From IMG/VR virus record IMGVR_UViG_3300030109_002488, positions 1-30,124 of that record: a stretch of DNA of 30,124 nt; one strand, 5' to 3'. The position numbers and the translations under genes were made by a program. A model generated the notes under the pieces. That model was not told where the DNA came from, ran no database searches, and saw only the letters and a list, made by a program, of their open reading frames with translations. Below are positions 2,637-18,030 of this stretch, in pieces (positions within the stretch are counted from its first letter, which is position 1; every line of letters starts with the position of its first letter). Origin of the DNA: a virus. Lineage: Duplodnaviria; Caudoviricetes.

Positions 2637-4037
2637 TTAGGACGCTACACAAGTTATATCAAGCGAAGTATCAAATCTCTTAAGAGCGATACCAGCTGTT
2701 TTTAACATGTGAACGCTTGCCCCGTCAACATCAGATGCTCTTGTGTCTGTGCTAGAAAATCCTCTAGGAACTACAGAACCAGCAACACACCATCTCATAG
2801 ACTCACGACCTTTCTTAGAGATCATTTGTAAGTTGTTTTGACCGTCATAGTTTGACTGATCAACAAATACCATTCTATAAGACTCAAGAGAGTATCCAGT
2901 TGTTGGGTGCTTTGCACGAGCCTGAGCTACTGCACCATGATCAAATAATGGAAGTTTTACAACATTCACATTATGTCCATCTACATGCTCGTACGAAGTA
3001 AAGTAACCAGTTACTTTCCAAGTATTACCTGAGAAGTGTGATTTAAGAGCTTCATCAAATTCACGAGCTCCACCAGTACCAGTGTAAAGAGTTATCTGCT
3101 TTTGAGCAGCATCAGTCATTGAATAGAATAAATCACCGATGATGTTCTTAAGTTTTGTTTCAGTCATTGTAGAGTAAGTGTCAGTTTCAACAATTTGCTC
3201 TAAAAGACCAGGACCTACGATTACAGGCTGTCCATTCTCATCTTTCATGTAAGTATGTCCATTTGCATCATAAGTTTTTTGACCATACCAGTAATACATT
3301 TCACACTCTTCTTTAAAGTCAAGCATGTGTAAGTACTCTTCGTAGTCCATCCAAAGTTTAGTAGTAGATCCACCTTTTTTAGGTAGAGAAAACTCTGCTA
3401 CATAATCTTTAGCGTTTCCAGACATGTGGTAAGATTTTCTAACTGTAGTTAGTTTGTTTCTTACTTTACCTGGAGTTTCCCAGTTAGAAGCGTTACCTCT
3501 AGAGAAGTCAACTCCTACTGGTGCATACATTTGCGCAAAAAGCGCTCCTGCAATAACGTCAGCCGCTGGCATAACTGCCGTAGCTGAAGGGTTAATTAAT
3601 TGTAAAGTGTATTTCCATGAAGATCCTCCTGCTACTTGCTCTGGTTCTTTCATAATACGTGCTTGTGTACCTGATTGAGATACTAATACGTATGGGAATA
3701 CAAAATGTTTGTCAGGAAATTCAACCTCAAAAGTTGCTCCTCCTAATCCAATGCTACTTCCTGTTGGTCCTGCCGCTGCTACTGGTCTCGTTCTCATTCT
3801 ATGTGTTGCCACACGATACTCATATTCTAACCTGTCAATAGACTTTGTGTTACCAACTCCTTCTGTTAAGAAAGATAAAGGAAATCTTTTATCGTCTTTA
3901 CCTGCTAAATGAGTAATAATCGGAGACAGTTCAGTAGGCTTTGCCAACAATGCATTTGACAAACTGTTCATGTCTGTCATTTGTGAATCGTTGTAAAACG
4001 TTTTTTGAACGCTTATATTTGTTCCGTTAATTGCCAT
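2637..4037 (-). CDS. Major capsid protein (crAss-like, HK97 fold)
   Basis: 466 aa. Contains FPLSFLTEG, VRNKLTTVRKSYHMSGN, GPGLLEQI, YTGTGGAREFDEAL and HPxTGYSLESYRMVFVD, characteristic of crAss-family MCPs. Followed by a strong terminator. Confidence 0.92.
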   Translation of the reverse strand: MAINGTNISVQKTFYNDSQMTDMNSLSNALLAKPTELSPIITHLAGKDDKRFPLSFLTEGVGNTKSIDRLEYEYRVATHRMRTRPVAAAGPTGSSIGLGGATFEVEFPDKHFVFPYVLVSQSGTQARIMKEPEQVAGGSSWKYTLQLINPSATAVMPAADVIAGALFAQMYAPVGVDFSRGNASNWETPGKVRNKLTTVRKSYHMSGNAKDYVAEFSLPKKGGSTTKLWMDYEEYLHMLDFKEECEMYYWYGQKTYDANGHTYMKDENGQPVIVGPGLLEQIVETDTYSTMTETKLKNIIGDLFYSMTDAAQKQITLYTGTGGAREFDEALKSHFSGNTWKVTGYFTSYEHVDGHNVNVVKLPLFDHGAVAQARAKHPTTGYSLESYRMVFVDQSNYDGQNNLQMISKKGRESMRWCVAGSVVPRGFSSTDTRASDVDGASVHMLKTAGIALKRFDTSLDITCVAS

Positions 4038-5266: not shown

Positions 5267-7612
5267 TTAATACAATTTACGTCTTGCTTTTTTTAATTTT
5301 TTTCTCACACCTCCTTTTTTAGCTTGCATTGTGTTAAAACTAATATCATCAGAAATACTGTTTGGATCAGTTTGAGCAATAGTATTCATAAGGTTTATAA
5401 TATCTTCATCTGAATATATTTTAAATAATCTTTGGTGAACTCCGTCTGTATTTTTAGCTTTCTTTAAATGTTTCTTTTTAAATTCTTTAAATTTTTTTCC
5501 AGTTGATTTAAATATTCCTGCTTTTTCTAATTCATATCTTAATTGTATTAAATCTGCTCTAGTTTCATTTGCAGCAGCATCATGGTGATATGCATCTGGC
5601 CGGCTAGGGTCAGCATAACCTATACGACCTTCTTGTACAAGTTTATTTTTTGATAAAATATAATTCTGTACATCATCATCCGAAGTAATCCAATTTTTAT
5701 CAGTATGTCCTAACTCATGAGCTAAAATACTATCATGTGTCATATTTACACCCGGTATATATGAAATTTCTTTGTGTGGTATACCCATTGCAATTTTACC
5801 TGTACTTTTATCATAATGAGATCCTACGTCACCAGTATACCTATAAAAAATATTTCCAGCAGGATTTTCCATAAACTTTTTTTGTTCATAATCTGCTGCC
5901 ATCGTAAAAGCTCCAGGCCTAGCTCCTGGATCAATTAGACTTACTGAATAATCAATTTCTCCCCAAGAAGGATGTCTGTACCCATACATGTCGTTAGGAT
6001 AACCTGCAATGTCAGAAGTTCGTTTTAATAATTCTTGATACTGACCACTATTAAGATAATTACCAAACCAATCTATAGCTCCTTGATAATCTGCTTTTTT
6101 CTCTTCTTCAATTGACTGACCACCTTTTTGATATTTTTTTCTTAATCCTCCTTTCTTAGCCATTACAGTTCCACTTCTATCATCTATTATTTCATTTTCC
6201 ATTGCAACTGTATTATGAATATTTATAATGTTTTCTCCATCTTCCCCGTATCTTTCTATCATACGTTCAAATGTTATATTTTCTATTCCATTTTCTTTAT
6301 CTTGTTTATACTTAGTAACTAATTGTTTCCATAATTTTGGAGTTAATTCTTGATCAGGAGTCCACGCACTGCCGTCTGAATTTGTTAAATTTTGATGTGC
6401 AAAAAATCTCATACCTATTAAATCTGCGTAAGATTCTGAAGCTCCTATATCATGAATAGGACCCGTTTTTTGTAATCCAATAGTCATTTGATCACCTGTA
6501 GGGTAACCTTTTGTCAGTGCATCACTTTCCATAAAAGCTTTTTGTAAGTTTTCTGCTTTTTCATTTGCATCTTTAAATTCTTTACTGTCCCTACCATAAA
6601 GCTCTCCCATTTCTCTTGAATACATAAGAGCTTGTTGCCATGTAGTCATTTGACTAGCTACGTCTTCTAAATTTATATTATCAGAAGAATAGTTTGTAAA
6701 ATTAGGATTAGGTGCATATACATTATTATTAGGATCTACTTCTATAAGAGCTCCGTCATCACTTAATAGATTATCTTTTAAAGTAGGATAAAATACATTT
6801 CGAGTTACAGGAAAGTAATACCCTCTTTGGTCTTTATCAGCATATCCTAAAGTACCAGGCTGATGAGTATATCTAGGGCTTCCGTCATCGTTTGTCATCC
6901 TAAGTCCCAAAACATCTTGATATTGCAGAGTTCCTATAGTTGTCATTGGACCAGTAGGCTCCCAAGGAGCATCTTGCCATTTTTTATTTAAAGTATTAAG
7001 TAAGGATGCGTCTTGAAAATTAAGAGCTTTATTAGCTACAATTCTGTCTGTTGAAGTCCTAAAATCTGGTCCTCCTTTTGTTGGAGGTCTTTTAGGAAAA
7101 GATCCCCCTATATTATGTCCCACTTCATGAGCGTATACTGTACCAAATTGATCGTTCATGGATGTAATTTGATTAGCGTCCATTAATATCTGACCTGAAC
7201 CTGGAGCAGTCATAGATCCAGATCTCCTCATATTAGCTTTCCACGTGGCCCATTTTTTCCCGCATTCTCCTGTAAGAATTTGATAACCATCTTCATCCCT
7301 ACATTCTTGAGGCATAGTAAAAAACATATCATCCATACTTTGTAATCCTTCAGTTTCTTGTACTTGAATATTTTTAAGAGCATCTAATCTTAATTGTTGT
7401 GTATTTTTTGGATCAGTATATCCTTGATTAGTTAATCTATTTAAATATGTAGGGCTTTGTAAATAGTTAGATAACATTTGATCTACATTACTGTATATTA
7501 TCTGTCTTGCAGGATCTGTTGGTATTCCTATATCTGCTGATCCTAAAATACTATCTGTTCCACCAGTTTGATATATTTTACGTCTTGATTTTGTTAATTT
7601 TTTCTTTTTCAT
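5267..7612 (-). CDS. Tandem zincin-like (HExxH) metallopeptidase-domain protein, putative virion cargo/polyvalent protein
   Basis: Two homologous modules: HEVGH (7115-7129)...ESYADL..MRF...INIHNTVA and HELGH (5705-5719)...ETRADL..LRY...INLMNTIA. They are bracketed by YQxGG/KKGG motifs. Confidence 0.7.
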   Translation of the reverse strand: MKKKKLTKSRRKIYQTGGTDSILGSADIGIPTDPARQIIYSNVDQMLSNYLQSPTYLNRLTNQGYTDPKNTQQLRLDALKNIQVQETEGLQSMDDMFFTMPQECRDEDGYQILTGECGKKWATWKANMRRSGSMTAPGSGQILMDANQITSMNDQFGTVYAHEVGHNIGGSFPKRPPTKGGPDFRTSTDRIVANKALNFQDASLLNTLNKKWQDAPWEPTGPMTTIGTLQYQDVLGLRMTNDDGSPRYTHQPGTLGYADKDQRGYYFPVTRNVFYPTLKDNLLSDDGALIEVDPNNNVYAPNPNFTNYSSDNINLEDVASQMTTWQQALMYSREMGELYGRDSKEFKDANEKAENLQKAFMESDALTKGYPTGDQMTIGLQKTGPIHDIGASESYADLIGMRFFAHQNLTNSDGSAWTPDQELTPKLWKQLVTKYKQDKENGIENITFERMIERYGEDGENIINIHNTVAMENEIIDDRSGTVMAKKGGLRKKYQKGGQSIEEEKKADYQGAIDWFGNYLNSGQYQELLKRTSDIAGYPNDMYGYRHPSWGEIDYSVSLIDPGARPGAFTMAADYEQKKFMENPAGNIFYRYTGDVGSHYDKSTGKIAMGIPHKEISYIPGVNMTHDSILAHELGHTDKNWITSDDDVQNYILSKNKLVQEGRIGYADPSRPDAYHHDAAANETRADLIQLRYELEKAGIFKSTGKKFKEFKKKHLKKAKNTDGVHQRLFKIYSDEDIINLMNTIAQTDPNSISDDISFNTMQAKKGGVRKKLKKARRKLY

Positions 7613-15236: not shown

Positions 15237-15468
15237 TTAATTTAATTTGTATTCTTCCGTTAGTTACTGTAATTTTAGATGTCTTAGATTGTCTGTTAAA
15301 TTCATCTATGTAAGATTGTATGTCAACCTTATCATATATAAATGATAAAAATACTTGTATTTCTTTAGCTGCTAGTTTAGTAGATTCTTCTAAATTTTTA
15401 GCGTTTATACTAGCGTCAAGTAAAGCGTGATAATCTTTAATAGATATAGTAACAGATCCTTCTACCAT
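15211..15468 (-). CDS. Hypothetical protein
   Basis: 85-aa ORF overlapping both neighbours in the operon. Confidence 0.7.
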   Translation of the reverse strand: MVEGSVTISIKDYHALLDASINAKNLEESTKLAAKEIQVFLSFIYDKVDIQSYIDEFNRQSKTSKITVTNGRIQIKLNEEKENNS

Positions 15469-15725
15469 TTACCTAATAGTTGATGTTCAGAAATCATAAT
15501 GTATTGCTTATCGTCTACATCTACAATTATAGCTTCTGATCTAGGGTCAACCATTACGGTTTCTCCAGTTTTAACAAAATGGCATTGAGGACCTACAGCA
15601 AGTACTTCGAGTATATTAGTATTTAAACTCTTTGCTGTTTTCTTATCTAAAATAATTCCTGAATCTGTTTGTAGTTTACTTGGGTCTGGAAGGACAACCC
15701 ACGATCCGTTTGGTTTAAAATTCAT
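15462..15725 (-). CDS. groES: Co-chaperonin GroES (Cpn10)
   Basis: FKPNGSWVVL...TDSGIIL...EVLAVGP...VKTGETVM...YIMISEHQLLG is the Cpn10 pattern, including the mobile loop. Confidence 0.88.
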   Translation of the reverse strand: MNFKPNGSWVVLPDPSKLQTDSGIILDKKTAKSLNTNILEVLAVGPQCHFVKTGETVMVDPRSEAIIVDVDDKQYIMISEHQLLGKW

Positions 15726-15743: not shown

Positions 15744-15776
15744 CAAAGATATAAACTATTTTTTTATAAATCCAAA
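15744..15776 (-). promoter_or_regulatory. Bacteroidota sigma70 promoter for groES operon
   Basis: Minus strand TTTG (15776-15773), 21-nt spacer, TATCTTTG (15751-15744): the -33/-7 consensus. Confidence 0.8.
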
Positions 15777-16040: not shown

Positions 16041-16050
16041 TGCAAAGATA
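16041..16050 (-). promoter_or_regulatory. Bacteroidota -7 promoter element
   Basis: Minus strand TATCTTTGCA preceded by a T-rich tract. No clear -33 element. Confidence 0.65.
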
Positions 16051-16577: not shown

Positions 16578-16736
16578 ATGGATAAAAATACAATAACATT
16601 AGATGATAATATCTATGTTAAACCAAAGAAGAAGACTAAAGATGAATTATACACTGAACTATTCTCTTTGTTAGATAAACAGATACAAAATATGACTGAT
16701 AAAGAATATCAAGAATATAAAAGAAGAAGACAATGA
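16578..16736 (+). CDS. 52-aa hypothetical protein
   Basis: MDKNTITLDDNIYVKPKKKTKDELYTELFSLLDKQIQNMTDKEYQEYKRRRQ*. ATGA overlap with the next ORF. Confidence 0.55.
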   Translation: MDKNTITLDDNIYVKPKKKTKDELYTELFSLLDKQIQNMTDKEYQEYKRRRQ

Positions 16737-16825
16737 AAATAATAATCAAATCAATACAATACATACTAATCATAACAGGACTATCATTAGGTATCCTGTT
16801 TTGGTTATGTATAATGTATGTATAA
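16733..16825 (+). CDS. 30-aa single-TM peptide
   Basis: MKIIIKSIQYILIITGLSLGILFWLCIMYV*. Coupled to the upstream ORF. Confidence 0.45.
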   Translation: MKIIIKSIQYILIITGLSLGILFWLCIMYV

Positions 16826-16860
16826 CTAATCAATTAATCATTAACTAAACATTATCAATC

Positions 16861-17151: not shown

Positions 17152-17325
17152 AACATAACACCTGAACATGTATTCAAACTGTTCATTTAGGTATTTATAG
17201 ACTAACCTTGTTTTCTAGATAAACAAAACTAATCTTGACACTGGATCTTAATGGGATCGATACCATTAAACCACATTCTTGAAATAACATACTTTGATAT
17301 GATTTATTTAGTAAGTAAAGGTGTC

Positions 17326-17376
17326 CTTATATTGTGATGTGTATCACAACTGATGATTCCGAAAGGATGAAATAAG
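17326..17376 (+). ncRNA. Hammerhead ribozyme, type III
   Basis: CTTAT-A, stem I TTGTGAT/ATCACAA, core CTGATGA, stem II TCC-GAAA-GGA, core GAAA, with ATAAG pairing CTTAT (stem III). Predicted cleavage after AUA at 17331. Confidence 0.85.
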
Positions 17377-17410
17377 AAAAACTAACTTCAGGGTTCGAAA
17401 CCTGTAGGAA

Positions 17411-17795
17411 GAACTAGTAGACAATAAAGGTCTTGTGGGAACAAGGGACTGAGTCAACTGATTAATCACCTAGATGTGATGTCCTATAAATGTAGGATGT
17501 CTGTCCTTTTAACAAAGGAATCAGGGTAACTGTGAAAAACAATTAAAACTTAATTGTAACTTCGACACTAATTATTCAAATGGTATACCATTACCACAGA
17601 GTAATATAACATTAATTGTAGTAATTTATGTAATGTATAGTAATATATAAACATATCTGTTGAAAGAAATGTTATGTGTCAAGAAATCTAGAGGGTAGAA
17701 CCTCATTGGTCACAGTTTGTAGTCGAAGGACTACCTAGTTCGTGTTTTAAAGTCACCAATGGAGGTCACAAGTCCTCATATAAAAGACTGAGTGG
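17411..17795 (+). ncRNA. Candidate large structured ncRNA with pseudoknot (unassigned)
   Basis: ORF-free, with more than 10 compatible stems. Long-range pairs include GAACTAG/CTAGTTC and AACTGTGA/TCACAGTT, plus a crossing CATTGGT/ACCAATG. Confidence 0.6.
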
Positions 17796-17832
17796 AACAT
17801 TTAAATAAAATACTAACTAAACACAAACAATC

Positions 17833-18030
17833 ATGACAACAGAAAAAGAATTAAGACACTTACCAATTAACAGTATAAATTATACTGAAGAACAAAAGAT
17901 TCGATCTAAAAACTTAGAACTAACGAGAGCACTACAAGATGTTGATAGACTGACATCAGATAATGTTCAGTTTAAACTTCAGATTATTGAGTTAAAACAA
18001 AAGATAAAAGAGTTAGAATCAACTAACTAA
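17833..18030 (+). CDS. Small coiled-coil hypothetical protein
   Basis: 65 aa with a heptad pattern and an A-rich leader. Confidence 0.65.
   Translation: MTTEKELRHLPINSINYTEEQKIRSKNLELTRALQDVDRLTSDNVQFKLQIIELKQKIKELESTN

Follow-up and report, generated by a model that had tools for sequence, protein, structure and literature searches.

The window, i.e., the whole stretch of 30,124 nucleotides that was analysed, belongs to a crAss-like phage, as the preliminary description had proposed. Its closest relatives are Crassvirales, with 30% identity for MCP and 42% for TerL, and MCP, portal and TerL of the crAss type are all present. The capsid, portal and terminase genes lie in the left arm on the minus strand, and the right arm, on the plus strand, starts with small ORFs that are followed by replication genes. 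In a 98%-complete relative, G005, MCP and TerL are 82% and 87% identical, respectively, to those of the window. The giant virion RNA polymerase, which is described as a hallmark of Crassvirales (PMC10136315), falls outside the fragment, and G005 has an ORF of 4625 aa that matches the virion RNA polymerase of phi14:2 (PDB 6VR4, E 6e-22).

Some other features of the phage deserve mention. A phage-encoded GroES is found at 15462-15725 (minus strand), and two TATCTTTG sites at 15744-15751 and 16043-16050, also on the minus strand, face the structural genes; we take TATCTTTG to be a Bacteroidota-type promoter motif. Neither sigma-70 promoters nor TAnnTTTG motifs were found in excess, and the plus strand of the cassette described below contains no TAnnTTTG motif. 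A 781-aa tail protein (5267-7612, minus strand) is unmatched in the sister phage G001 and in four other relatives; at this locus, G001 carries ~3.2 kb of other sequence, which likely reflects a swap of receptor-binding functions. A 52-aa ORF with its flank (16578-16860) is absent from G001 and from all other records compared.

The locus of interest lies on the plus strand between the structural and the replication arm, a position that agrees with the early region proposed before, where "early" is read from the gene layout. It comprises a non-coding leader (17188-17325), a type III hammerhead ribozyme (17326-17376), a large structured non-coding RNA (17381-17748) and a twister ribozyme of type P1 (17744-17798). 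The first gene after the twister, a 65-aa ORF at 17833-18030 on the plus strand, has no assigned function. Copies of the 6-bp repeat CATTTA, at 17184-17189 and 17798-17803, mark the limits of the cassette. The preliminary description reported only the hammerhead and omitted both the twister, which lies 370 nt downstream, and the structured RNA in between.

The 5′ part of the hammerhead consists of CTTAT (17326-17330), A17331, which is N17, and stem I (17332-17338 with 17343-17349) with a GTGT loop; the 3′ part comprises CTGATGA (17350-17356), T17357, stem II with its loop (TCC-GAAA-GGA, 17358-17367), T17368, GAA (17369-17371) and ATAAG (17372-17376). The full core had been placed at these positions before, and every element was found there, with one correction: within the GAAA at 17369-17372, only GAA is core, and the last A is A15.1, which is part of stem III. 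The core CUGANGA and GAA, the canonical A15.1-U16.1 pair and an N17 other than G are those of a type III hammerhead, whereas positions 10.1-11.1 form U·U instead of a base pair. The topology also agrees with type III, with stems I and II closed and stem III open, all kept by covariation (see below), and the cut is predicted, as before, between 17331 and 17332. When both strands of the window were searched with a type III descriptor, this site alone matched, and in 300 dinucleotide shuffles, also searched on both strands, there were two loose matches and none equally good. Thus, the hammerhead is unique in the window and beyond chance.

Some results from general models and thermodynamic folding speak against this reading. 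The Rfam hammerhead models, which had been suggested as a check, gave no match in the window at E≤5, and RF00008 gave five matches in 20 related loci, at 28-38 bits and all below 48.5. Taken in isolation, the 86-nt hammerhead region has no advantage in folding over shuffles (z +0.47). In secondary-structure predictions, stem I is stable (pair probability 0.73-0.93), stem III is weak (0.02-0.19 in five windows), and stem II loses to competing pairings in the full-length fold (0.10).

A search of IMG/VR for the core pattern yielded 25 loci, 18 of which are type III; among the others, L006, L010, L011, L015, L023, L024 and L028 have a U·U core yet are not type III, and several look like type I. 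L024 contains several hammerhead-like motifs within 1.4 kb (1271-1320, 1501-1523 and 2574-2631). In BLAST searches, the region matched 66 Pseudomonas phages in 76 records, and among the matches listed the hammerhead alone was aligned. One of these phages is PaP3, whose hammerhead is located at the genome end and is 83.7% identical to that of the window over 43 nt. It shares the 7-bp stem I, the GUGU loop, CUGAUGA, U10.1·U11.1, the UCC/GGA stem II and A at N17, and differs in the triplet, which is AUA in the window and GUA in the hammerhead of PaP3/LUZ24. The latter is followed by an ORF, whereas a non-coding RNA follows the hammerhead of the window, and the hosts would differ as well: Pseudomonas for PaP3/LUZ24 and, presumably, a marine member of the Bacteroidota for the phage studied here.

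These relatives alter the view of three details that had been called unusual. Sixteen of the 18 type III hammerheads retrieved from IMG/VR have A at N17 and five have the AUA triplet, and PaP3 displays both U10.1·U11.1 and a stem II of 3 bp. In Perreault et al. (2011; PMC3088659), the PaP3 RNA is named a type III hammerhead located at the genome end and is listed among active core variants, U10.1-U11.1 is given as a tolerated natural variant, and a U15.1-A16.1 variant is described as slower; PaP3 is probably the U-U example meant there.

Covariation was assessed in 19 sequences, i.e., the window, L061, L001 and 16 of the 18 type III copies, two near-duplicates being left out. In stems I and III, 11 of 12 pairs show double changes and 98.6% of the cells pair, a result reached in none of 500 shuffles; stem II and the core were fixed by the search pattern in 16 of the 19 rows. 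At the top of stem I, U is found in all 19 sequences, opposite A or G. This U is a candidate for a U-A contact between loops I and II, for which a literature search yielded no paper. Relative to the homologous hammerhead of L061, 11 positions differ, which amount to five compensatory pairs plus N17, and no pair is broken. Conservation in the homologous cassettes, also suggested as a check, gave a divided answer: CUGAUGA and GAA are kept, but the 15.1-16.1 pair is inverted to U15.1-A16.1 in L061, L065, L322 and the contig from sequencing run X9. This inversion and the weak stem III might indicate a relic that cleaves slowly or not at all. We consider this very unlikely, as compensatory changes have preserved each of the three stems and the window copy has A15.1-U16.1. 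The hammerhead is a genuine one, with nothing out of the ordinary for its phage subtype.

The leader is common to L061, L065 and L322; in L322, leader and hammerhead are matched together (nhmmer E 1.4e-6). Within it, GACAC (17237-17241) is able to pair with GUGUC (17321-17325), immediately upstream of the hammerhead. Its fold is weakly supported (z -1.4, with alternative folds) and the central hairpin is variable. A candidate pseudoknot in the leader was dropped, as it is not kept in L061 or X9. By eye, 17225-17300 resembles the P6 domain of the large RNA (17545-17615), a likeness for which blastn gave no match, and 17233-17241 is complementary to 17676-17684.

Downstream of the hammerhead cut, the segment 17332-17749 folds far better than shuffles (z -4.1, reached by 0 of 100 shuffles) and contains no plus-strand ORF of more than 20 aa. 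The first hairpin after the hammerhead is P0 (17389-17404), the loop of which contains a palindromic hexamer (17394-17399). The remainder (17411-17741) is enclosed by P1, in which 17411-17417 pairs with 17735-17741 (pair probability 0.94). Inside P1 are P2 and a four-way junction, the long-range arm P4, which bears a multibranch domain that includes P6 (17564-17568 paired with 17676-17680), and a last hairpin. A pseudoknot of 3-4 bp between a P6 loop (17587-17592) and the linker before P4 (17705-17711) is possible, with one apparent compensatory change in L344.

This RNA belongs to an uncatalogued family, which presently consists of 14 contigs with an RNA of about 365-395 nt each, and the longest plus-strand ORF in nine members measures 14-41 aa. 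Clade A comprises the window, L060, L061 and L065 (88-96% identity) and clade B the other ten contigs (67-99% identity among five compared), whereas identity between the clades is only 46-51%. Both have the same order of elements: P0, P1, P2, four-way junction, multibranch arm, last hairpin and twister. Double changes occur in 9 of 107 pairs among the four clade A sequences, and in 32 of 117 pairs among five clade B sequences as compared with 0-4 in slid controls; these five clade B sequences served both for predicting the structure and for this count. All seven pairs of P1 are formed in 13 of 13 sequences listed, in six sequence variants, and all five pairs of P6 in 13 of 13 sequences printed. 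When the two clades were aligned together with MAFFT, P1 and the 5′ half came out misplaced, and no pair counts were taken from these alignments. However distant, the clades can be linked by a model: built from the 5′ half of eight clade B sequences, it finds the window with 35 bits, as compared with 12.7 for the best unrelated match.

The family was delimited by several searches. A profile search of 54 loci of related phages found distant homologues in six, five of them among the 36 loci with at least 3 kb upstream. A family pattern search gave 14 matches, 11 of which were true, and added four contigs; L363, L364 and L370 were dropped as chance matches. A 5′ pattern was true in one of five loci in IMG/VR, and the 30 loci that a scan of IMG/VR with a 15-mer produced included no homologue. 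A 3′-end pattern and, in GTDB genomes, the 5′ pattern each yielded at least 120 loci, and none among the matches listed was homologous by nhmmer. In cultured phages, the RNA body was absent and matches concerned the hammerhead or the twister alone. The Rfam models, including those for GOLLD, ROOL and OLE, did not match the body of the RNA in the window or in 15 further loci scanned. A tRNA or tmRNA identity was rejected, as none was detected, and so was a T-loop reading of P0, which is T-loop-like in clade A and not in clade B. No tRNA lies beside the RNA in the window; in L060, a tRNA-like match of 30.5 bits is located ~630 nt downstream of the twister (2968-3035).

In the literature searched, which left most subscription papers outside its scope, we found no description of the large RNA, nor of such ribozymes in Crassvirales. 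In PMC10690425, 8495 short motifs of 29-151 nt are reported as predicted from IMG/VR. Six supplementary files of that paper gave no match to the motifs searched for, and single hairpins of the large RNA may be listed elsewhere in the set.

The loop of P0 is palindromic in all 14 members, as UUCGAA in the four of clade A and UUGCAA in the ten of clade B. Thus, CG and GC are swapped between the clades inside the palindrome, and the swap counts as one evolutionary event. In bioRxiv 10.1101/2024.12.08.627333, the same GC/CG swap is taken to support a symmetric kissing loop of GOLLD, and changes of this kind have been used for the kissing loops of OLE as well. The palindrome of P0 bears the signature of such a loop, an interaction that we infer from the letters, and formation of an oligomer of the large RNA through it is conceivable, though rather doubtful.

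The twister is a full-length match to Rfam RF03160 (37.2 bits, E 8e-5), which lies below the gathering score of 67.2; the twisters of relatives score 42-57 bits, and five other matches in the Rfam scan of the window were due to chance. The match spans P1, P2, P4 and the conserved loops, and the conserved UAA, GGUC-CAAG and GAG elements are kept. As compared with RF03160, P3 is very short, the ribozyme is fixed behind a large RNA, and the pseudoknots are CAC/GUG and AC/GU instead of the consensus CCC/GGG and GC/GC, with pairing apparently kept. The letters are complementary for both pseudoknots in 13 of 13 sequences printed. The cut is predicted between 17748 and 17749; this site and the assignment of the loop-to-loop pseudoknots follow the twister literature. 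The twister is identical in the window, L060 and L061, although the flanks diverge, and is present behind the large RNA in all 14 contigs.

The hammerhead is less constant. It directly precedes the large RNA in three of the 14 contigs and lies ~1.1 kb ahead of it, with genes in between, in L322; in the other ten, some of which have little upstream sequence, it was not found upstream. L060 is one of those with large RNA and twister and without hammerhead. Thus, as judged from these sequences, the window joins two modules: leader plus hammerhead, and large RNA plus twister. As no such hammerhead was seen upstream in these ten members, the large RNA can do without it. Other elements were noticed upstream in clade B: L365 and L367 share a conserved, structured-looking intergenic motif ~190-330 nt upstream of the family pattern match, L365 and L368 share another one just upstream of the large RNA, and L366 has a G+C-rich stretch at that position. 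The upstream intergenic motifs of these contigs (L365-L368) have no match in Rfam. The early region of clade B phages may carry a set of swappable RNA modules.

The cassette as a whole is variable. Three sister phages (L002-L004), found via the next conserved gene and ~96% identical in nearby flanks, all lack it: identity to their empty allele stops at 17189, and ~610 bp, from 17190 to 17797-17803, are missing, with CATTTA on both sides. The absence of the whole cassette from these three close sisters is the other part of the divided answer on conservation given above. A contig from DNA run X4 has the same empty allele, in which the 65-aa ORF is present too, and in DNA run X2 a third allele is seen from 17188 onwards (a loose end of 241 letters). 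As this third allele starts at the same point, the site at 17188 is regarded as an insertion hot spot. On the right side, a contig of X9 stops matching at 17800. The cassette was present in at least 20 runs from at least 11 studies, one run possibly being the source of the window, and the runs that hold it are marine or aquatic; homologues of the whole cassette are found in L061 (90%) and L065 (88%). Its presence in many runs and these homologues argue against an assembly error.

Presence and absence between 96%-identical phages, a 6-bp repeat at the limits, and the same cassette limits in other flanks are what would be expected of a selfish, retrozyme-like element copied via the excised RNA. 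However, the cassette extends 140 nt past the hammerhead cut and 50 nt past the twister cut, so that the excised RNA cannot template it. In addition, none of five related records contains a reverse transcriptase, and each record has a single copy, which invariably lies in the early region. This explanation is already weakly refuted, and we regard it as extremely improbable. Since the limits lie outside both cut sites, they point to module exchange by recombination rather than to spread through RNA; module exchange at shared AT-rich ribosome-binding stretches (families D2-D3), via the Sak4-like annealing protein of the phage, would be simpler.

What, then, might the two ribozymes do? Cleavage by hammerhead and twister ribozymes near their own 5′ ends is established chemistry. 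Our preferred reading, which we hold to be probable, is that hammerhead and twister cut a stable 417-nt RNA from the early transcript, which acts in trans, likely as a homo-oligomer; the processing step taken by itself is also judged somewhat probable. Both ribozymes would cleave co-transcriptionally, each five or six bases from its own 5′ end, and free 17332-17748. Each cut would finish the 3′ end of the upstream piece and let the downstream piece start with a 5′-OH, protected by a hairpin. The twister would thus make the 3′ end of the RNA, a cyclic phosphate 7 nt past P1, while transcription would run on into the early genes. It would be the fixed partner (14/14), and the hammerhead an optional, swappable 5′ cutter (3/14). 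The 5′-OH hairpin and the cyclic phosphate may render the ends resistant to decay, and the released RNA would function in trans, most likely after assembly into a homo-oligomer by way of the palindromic loop. The sequence, its covariation, the family, the varying occurrence among phages and the contigs in RNA libraries are observations, whereas cleavage, ends, stability and oligomer are what we infer. The preliminary idea that the hammerhead cuts an early transcript is retained but was incomplete, as a structured non-coding RNA and a twister, not mRNA, lie beyond the cut.

The hammerhead could alternatively be an ordinary mRNA punctuation for the upstream message with its leader. The same subtype elsewhere would have such a role: in all 18 type III copies from IMG/VR, an ORF follows at 16-28 nt, and in 11 of the 18 a strong hairpin lies just upstream. 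Its adjacency to the large RNA would then have arisen by loss or shuffling of genes between independent modules, and the 5′ end of the RNA would be made by host nucleases. The arrangement in L322, with genes between leader-hammerhead and large RNA, and that in L060, without a hammerhead, fit this explanation, but in L061 and L065 (88-90% identity), as well as in X9, the large RNA likewise follows the hammerhead directly. We consider it a serious possibility, albeit not the expected outcome; it would leave the large RNA and the twister as described.

Contigs from RNA libraries bear on both explanations. Four of six RNA runs, one per study, were examined and contain contigs that cover 17419-17684, 17419-17697, 17419-17685 and 17345-17564, i.e., all inside 17345-17697, with neither loose ends nor joints; one more RNA-run contig covers 18061-18211. 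They are a weak hint of expression of the large RNA, as neither ends nor strand nor abundance can be read from contigs and DNA may be present in RNA libraries; absence of RNA cover on the flanks was not counted as evidence. Three of them start at 17419, 87 nt past the predicted cut and excluding the P0 hairpin, which would suit a 5′ end made by host nucleases, whereas the contig of X18 extends back to 17345, inside the hammerhead, which argues against it. DNA runs X2 and X9 continue through 17419. As this position lies just past the 5′ strand of P1, the shared start may reflect either a halt of reverse transcriptase at P1 or additional processing of the RNA. A contig of X19 (depth 2) shows three compensatory pairs, and six of its changes recur in X9 (depth 9.5).

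Returning to the excision of a 417-nt RNA by both ribozymes, the predicted 5′-OH and 2′,3′-cyclic-phosphate ends are of the kind joined by RtcB. If host RtcB joined them, a 417-nt circular RNA would result, a natural counterpart of the two-ribozyme design by which RNA circles are engineered, and RtcB is present in a Bacteroides control genome. However, no joints were seen in any of the four RNA runs, the contigs of which reach neither end of the RNA, and no ligation stem (complementary stretches of at least 7 bp) exists between the ends. RtcB is encoded in none of five related virus records, which are 50-98% complete, and the 5′ ribozyme is missing in ten of the 14 members. Circles from clustered phage hammerheads were sought and not found, according to PMC3088659. 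Circularization is therefore decidedly unlikely.

The large RNA might also act in cis, as a sensor of twister cleavage and, hence, of the stability or translation of the early genes. P1 ends 2 nt before the twister, and the first ORF starts 34 nt after it in the window and 27-42 nt after it in 13 of the 14 members. On the other hand, the gene downstream of the twister differs among family members and is unchanged in the empty allele, no conserved alternative pairing that sequesters the twister was found, and the RNA contigs lie over the body, not the twister. We deem a role as sensor unlikely.

Among 37 ORFs of the window, compared across six records, none goes with the large RNA. In four genomes, exact 12-nt antisense matches to the own genome were close to shuffled counts (4 versus 4.3, 10 versus 6.4, 11 versus 6.5 and 3 versus 5.6), and no target was common to the four. 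Because phages can do without the RNA, its neighbours are variable early genes and no protein goes with it consistently, we tentatively propose, as the weakest step, that it is an accessory early scaffold or a decoy against a host factor. Equally speculative is the broader picture of a new class of self-maturing large phage RNA, carried by marine crAss-like phages in a swappable cassette in which ribozymes free an ornate RNA of 370-420 nt without host nucleases and a kissing-loop, RNA-only complex acts on the host early in infection.

These considerations touch upon a wider question, namely what self-cleaving ribozymes do in DNA phages, which PMC6765202 describes as open. A twister that is tied to one product in all 14 members suggests a concrete role, i.e., to generate a terminus of a stable non-coding RNA. 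Bacteria and phages have few large ornate RNAs, which often prove unusual in structure or chemistry, and this family, which has no Rfam entry, is represented in marine RNA libraries of four studies. Moreover, natural plus/minus phage pairs with ~96% identity and the two clades provide ready compensatory controls.

Several known systems are comparable. In clustered phage ribozymes, as described in PMC3088659 and PMC6765202, two ribozymes on one transcript likewise excise a defined piece, but this piece is a gene, whereas it is a conserved structured non-coding RNA in the window. Paired ribozymes on one transcript also occur in L322 and in L017, where a hammerhead of the same subtype (30-84) and a twister-P5 (463-521) surround a single gene. 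Retrozymes, too, are non-coding, ribozyme-bounded and variably present (PMC6765202); in contrast to them, the cassette has no LTRs, two different ribozymes, no detected reverse transcriptase and limits that do not coincide with the cut sites. The theta (HDV-like) ribozymes behind phage tRNAs, for which making the 3′ end of a stable RNA in cis is postulated in PMC10879173, offer a parallel for the end-making, although the twister does not have the HDV-like fold and its product is not a tRNA. Finally, GOLLD, ROOL and OLE are likewise large, multibranched, phage-borne and dispensable, and loop L21a of GOLLD is palindromic with a GC/CG swap (PMC5737381; bioRxiv 10.1101/2024.12.08.627333). The RNA of the window is smaller (370 versus 580-800 nt), matches none of their Rfam models, has no adjacent tRNA and, as predicted, has its ends made by ribozymes. 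Ribozyme punctuation and ornate phage RNAs are both known, and the family of large, ribozyme-terminated RNAs described here is a variation on these two kinds.
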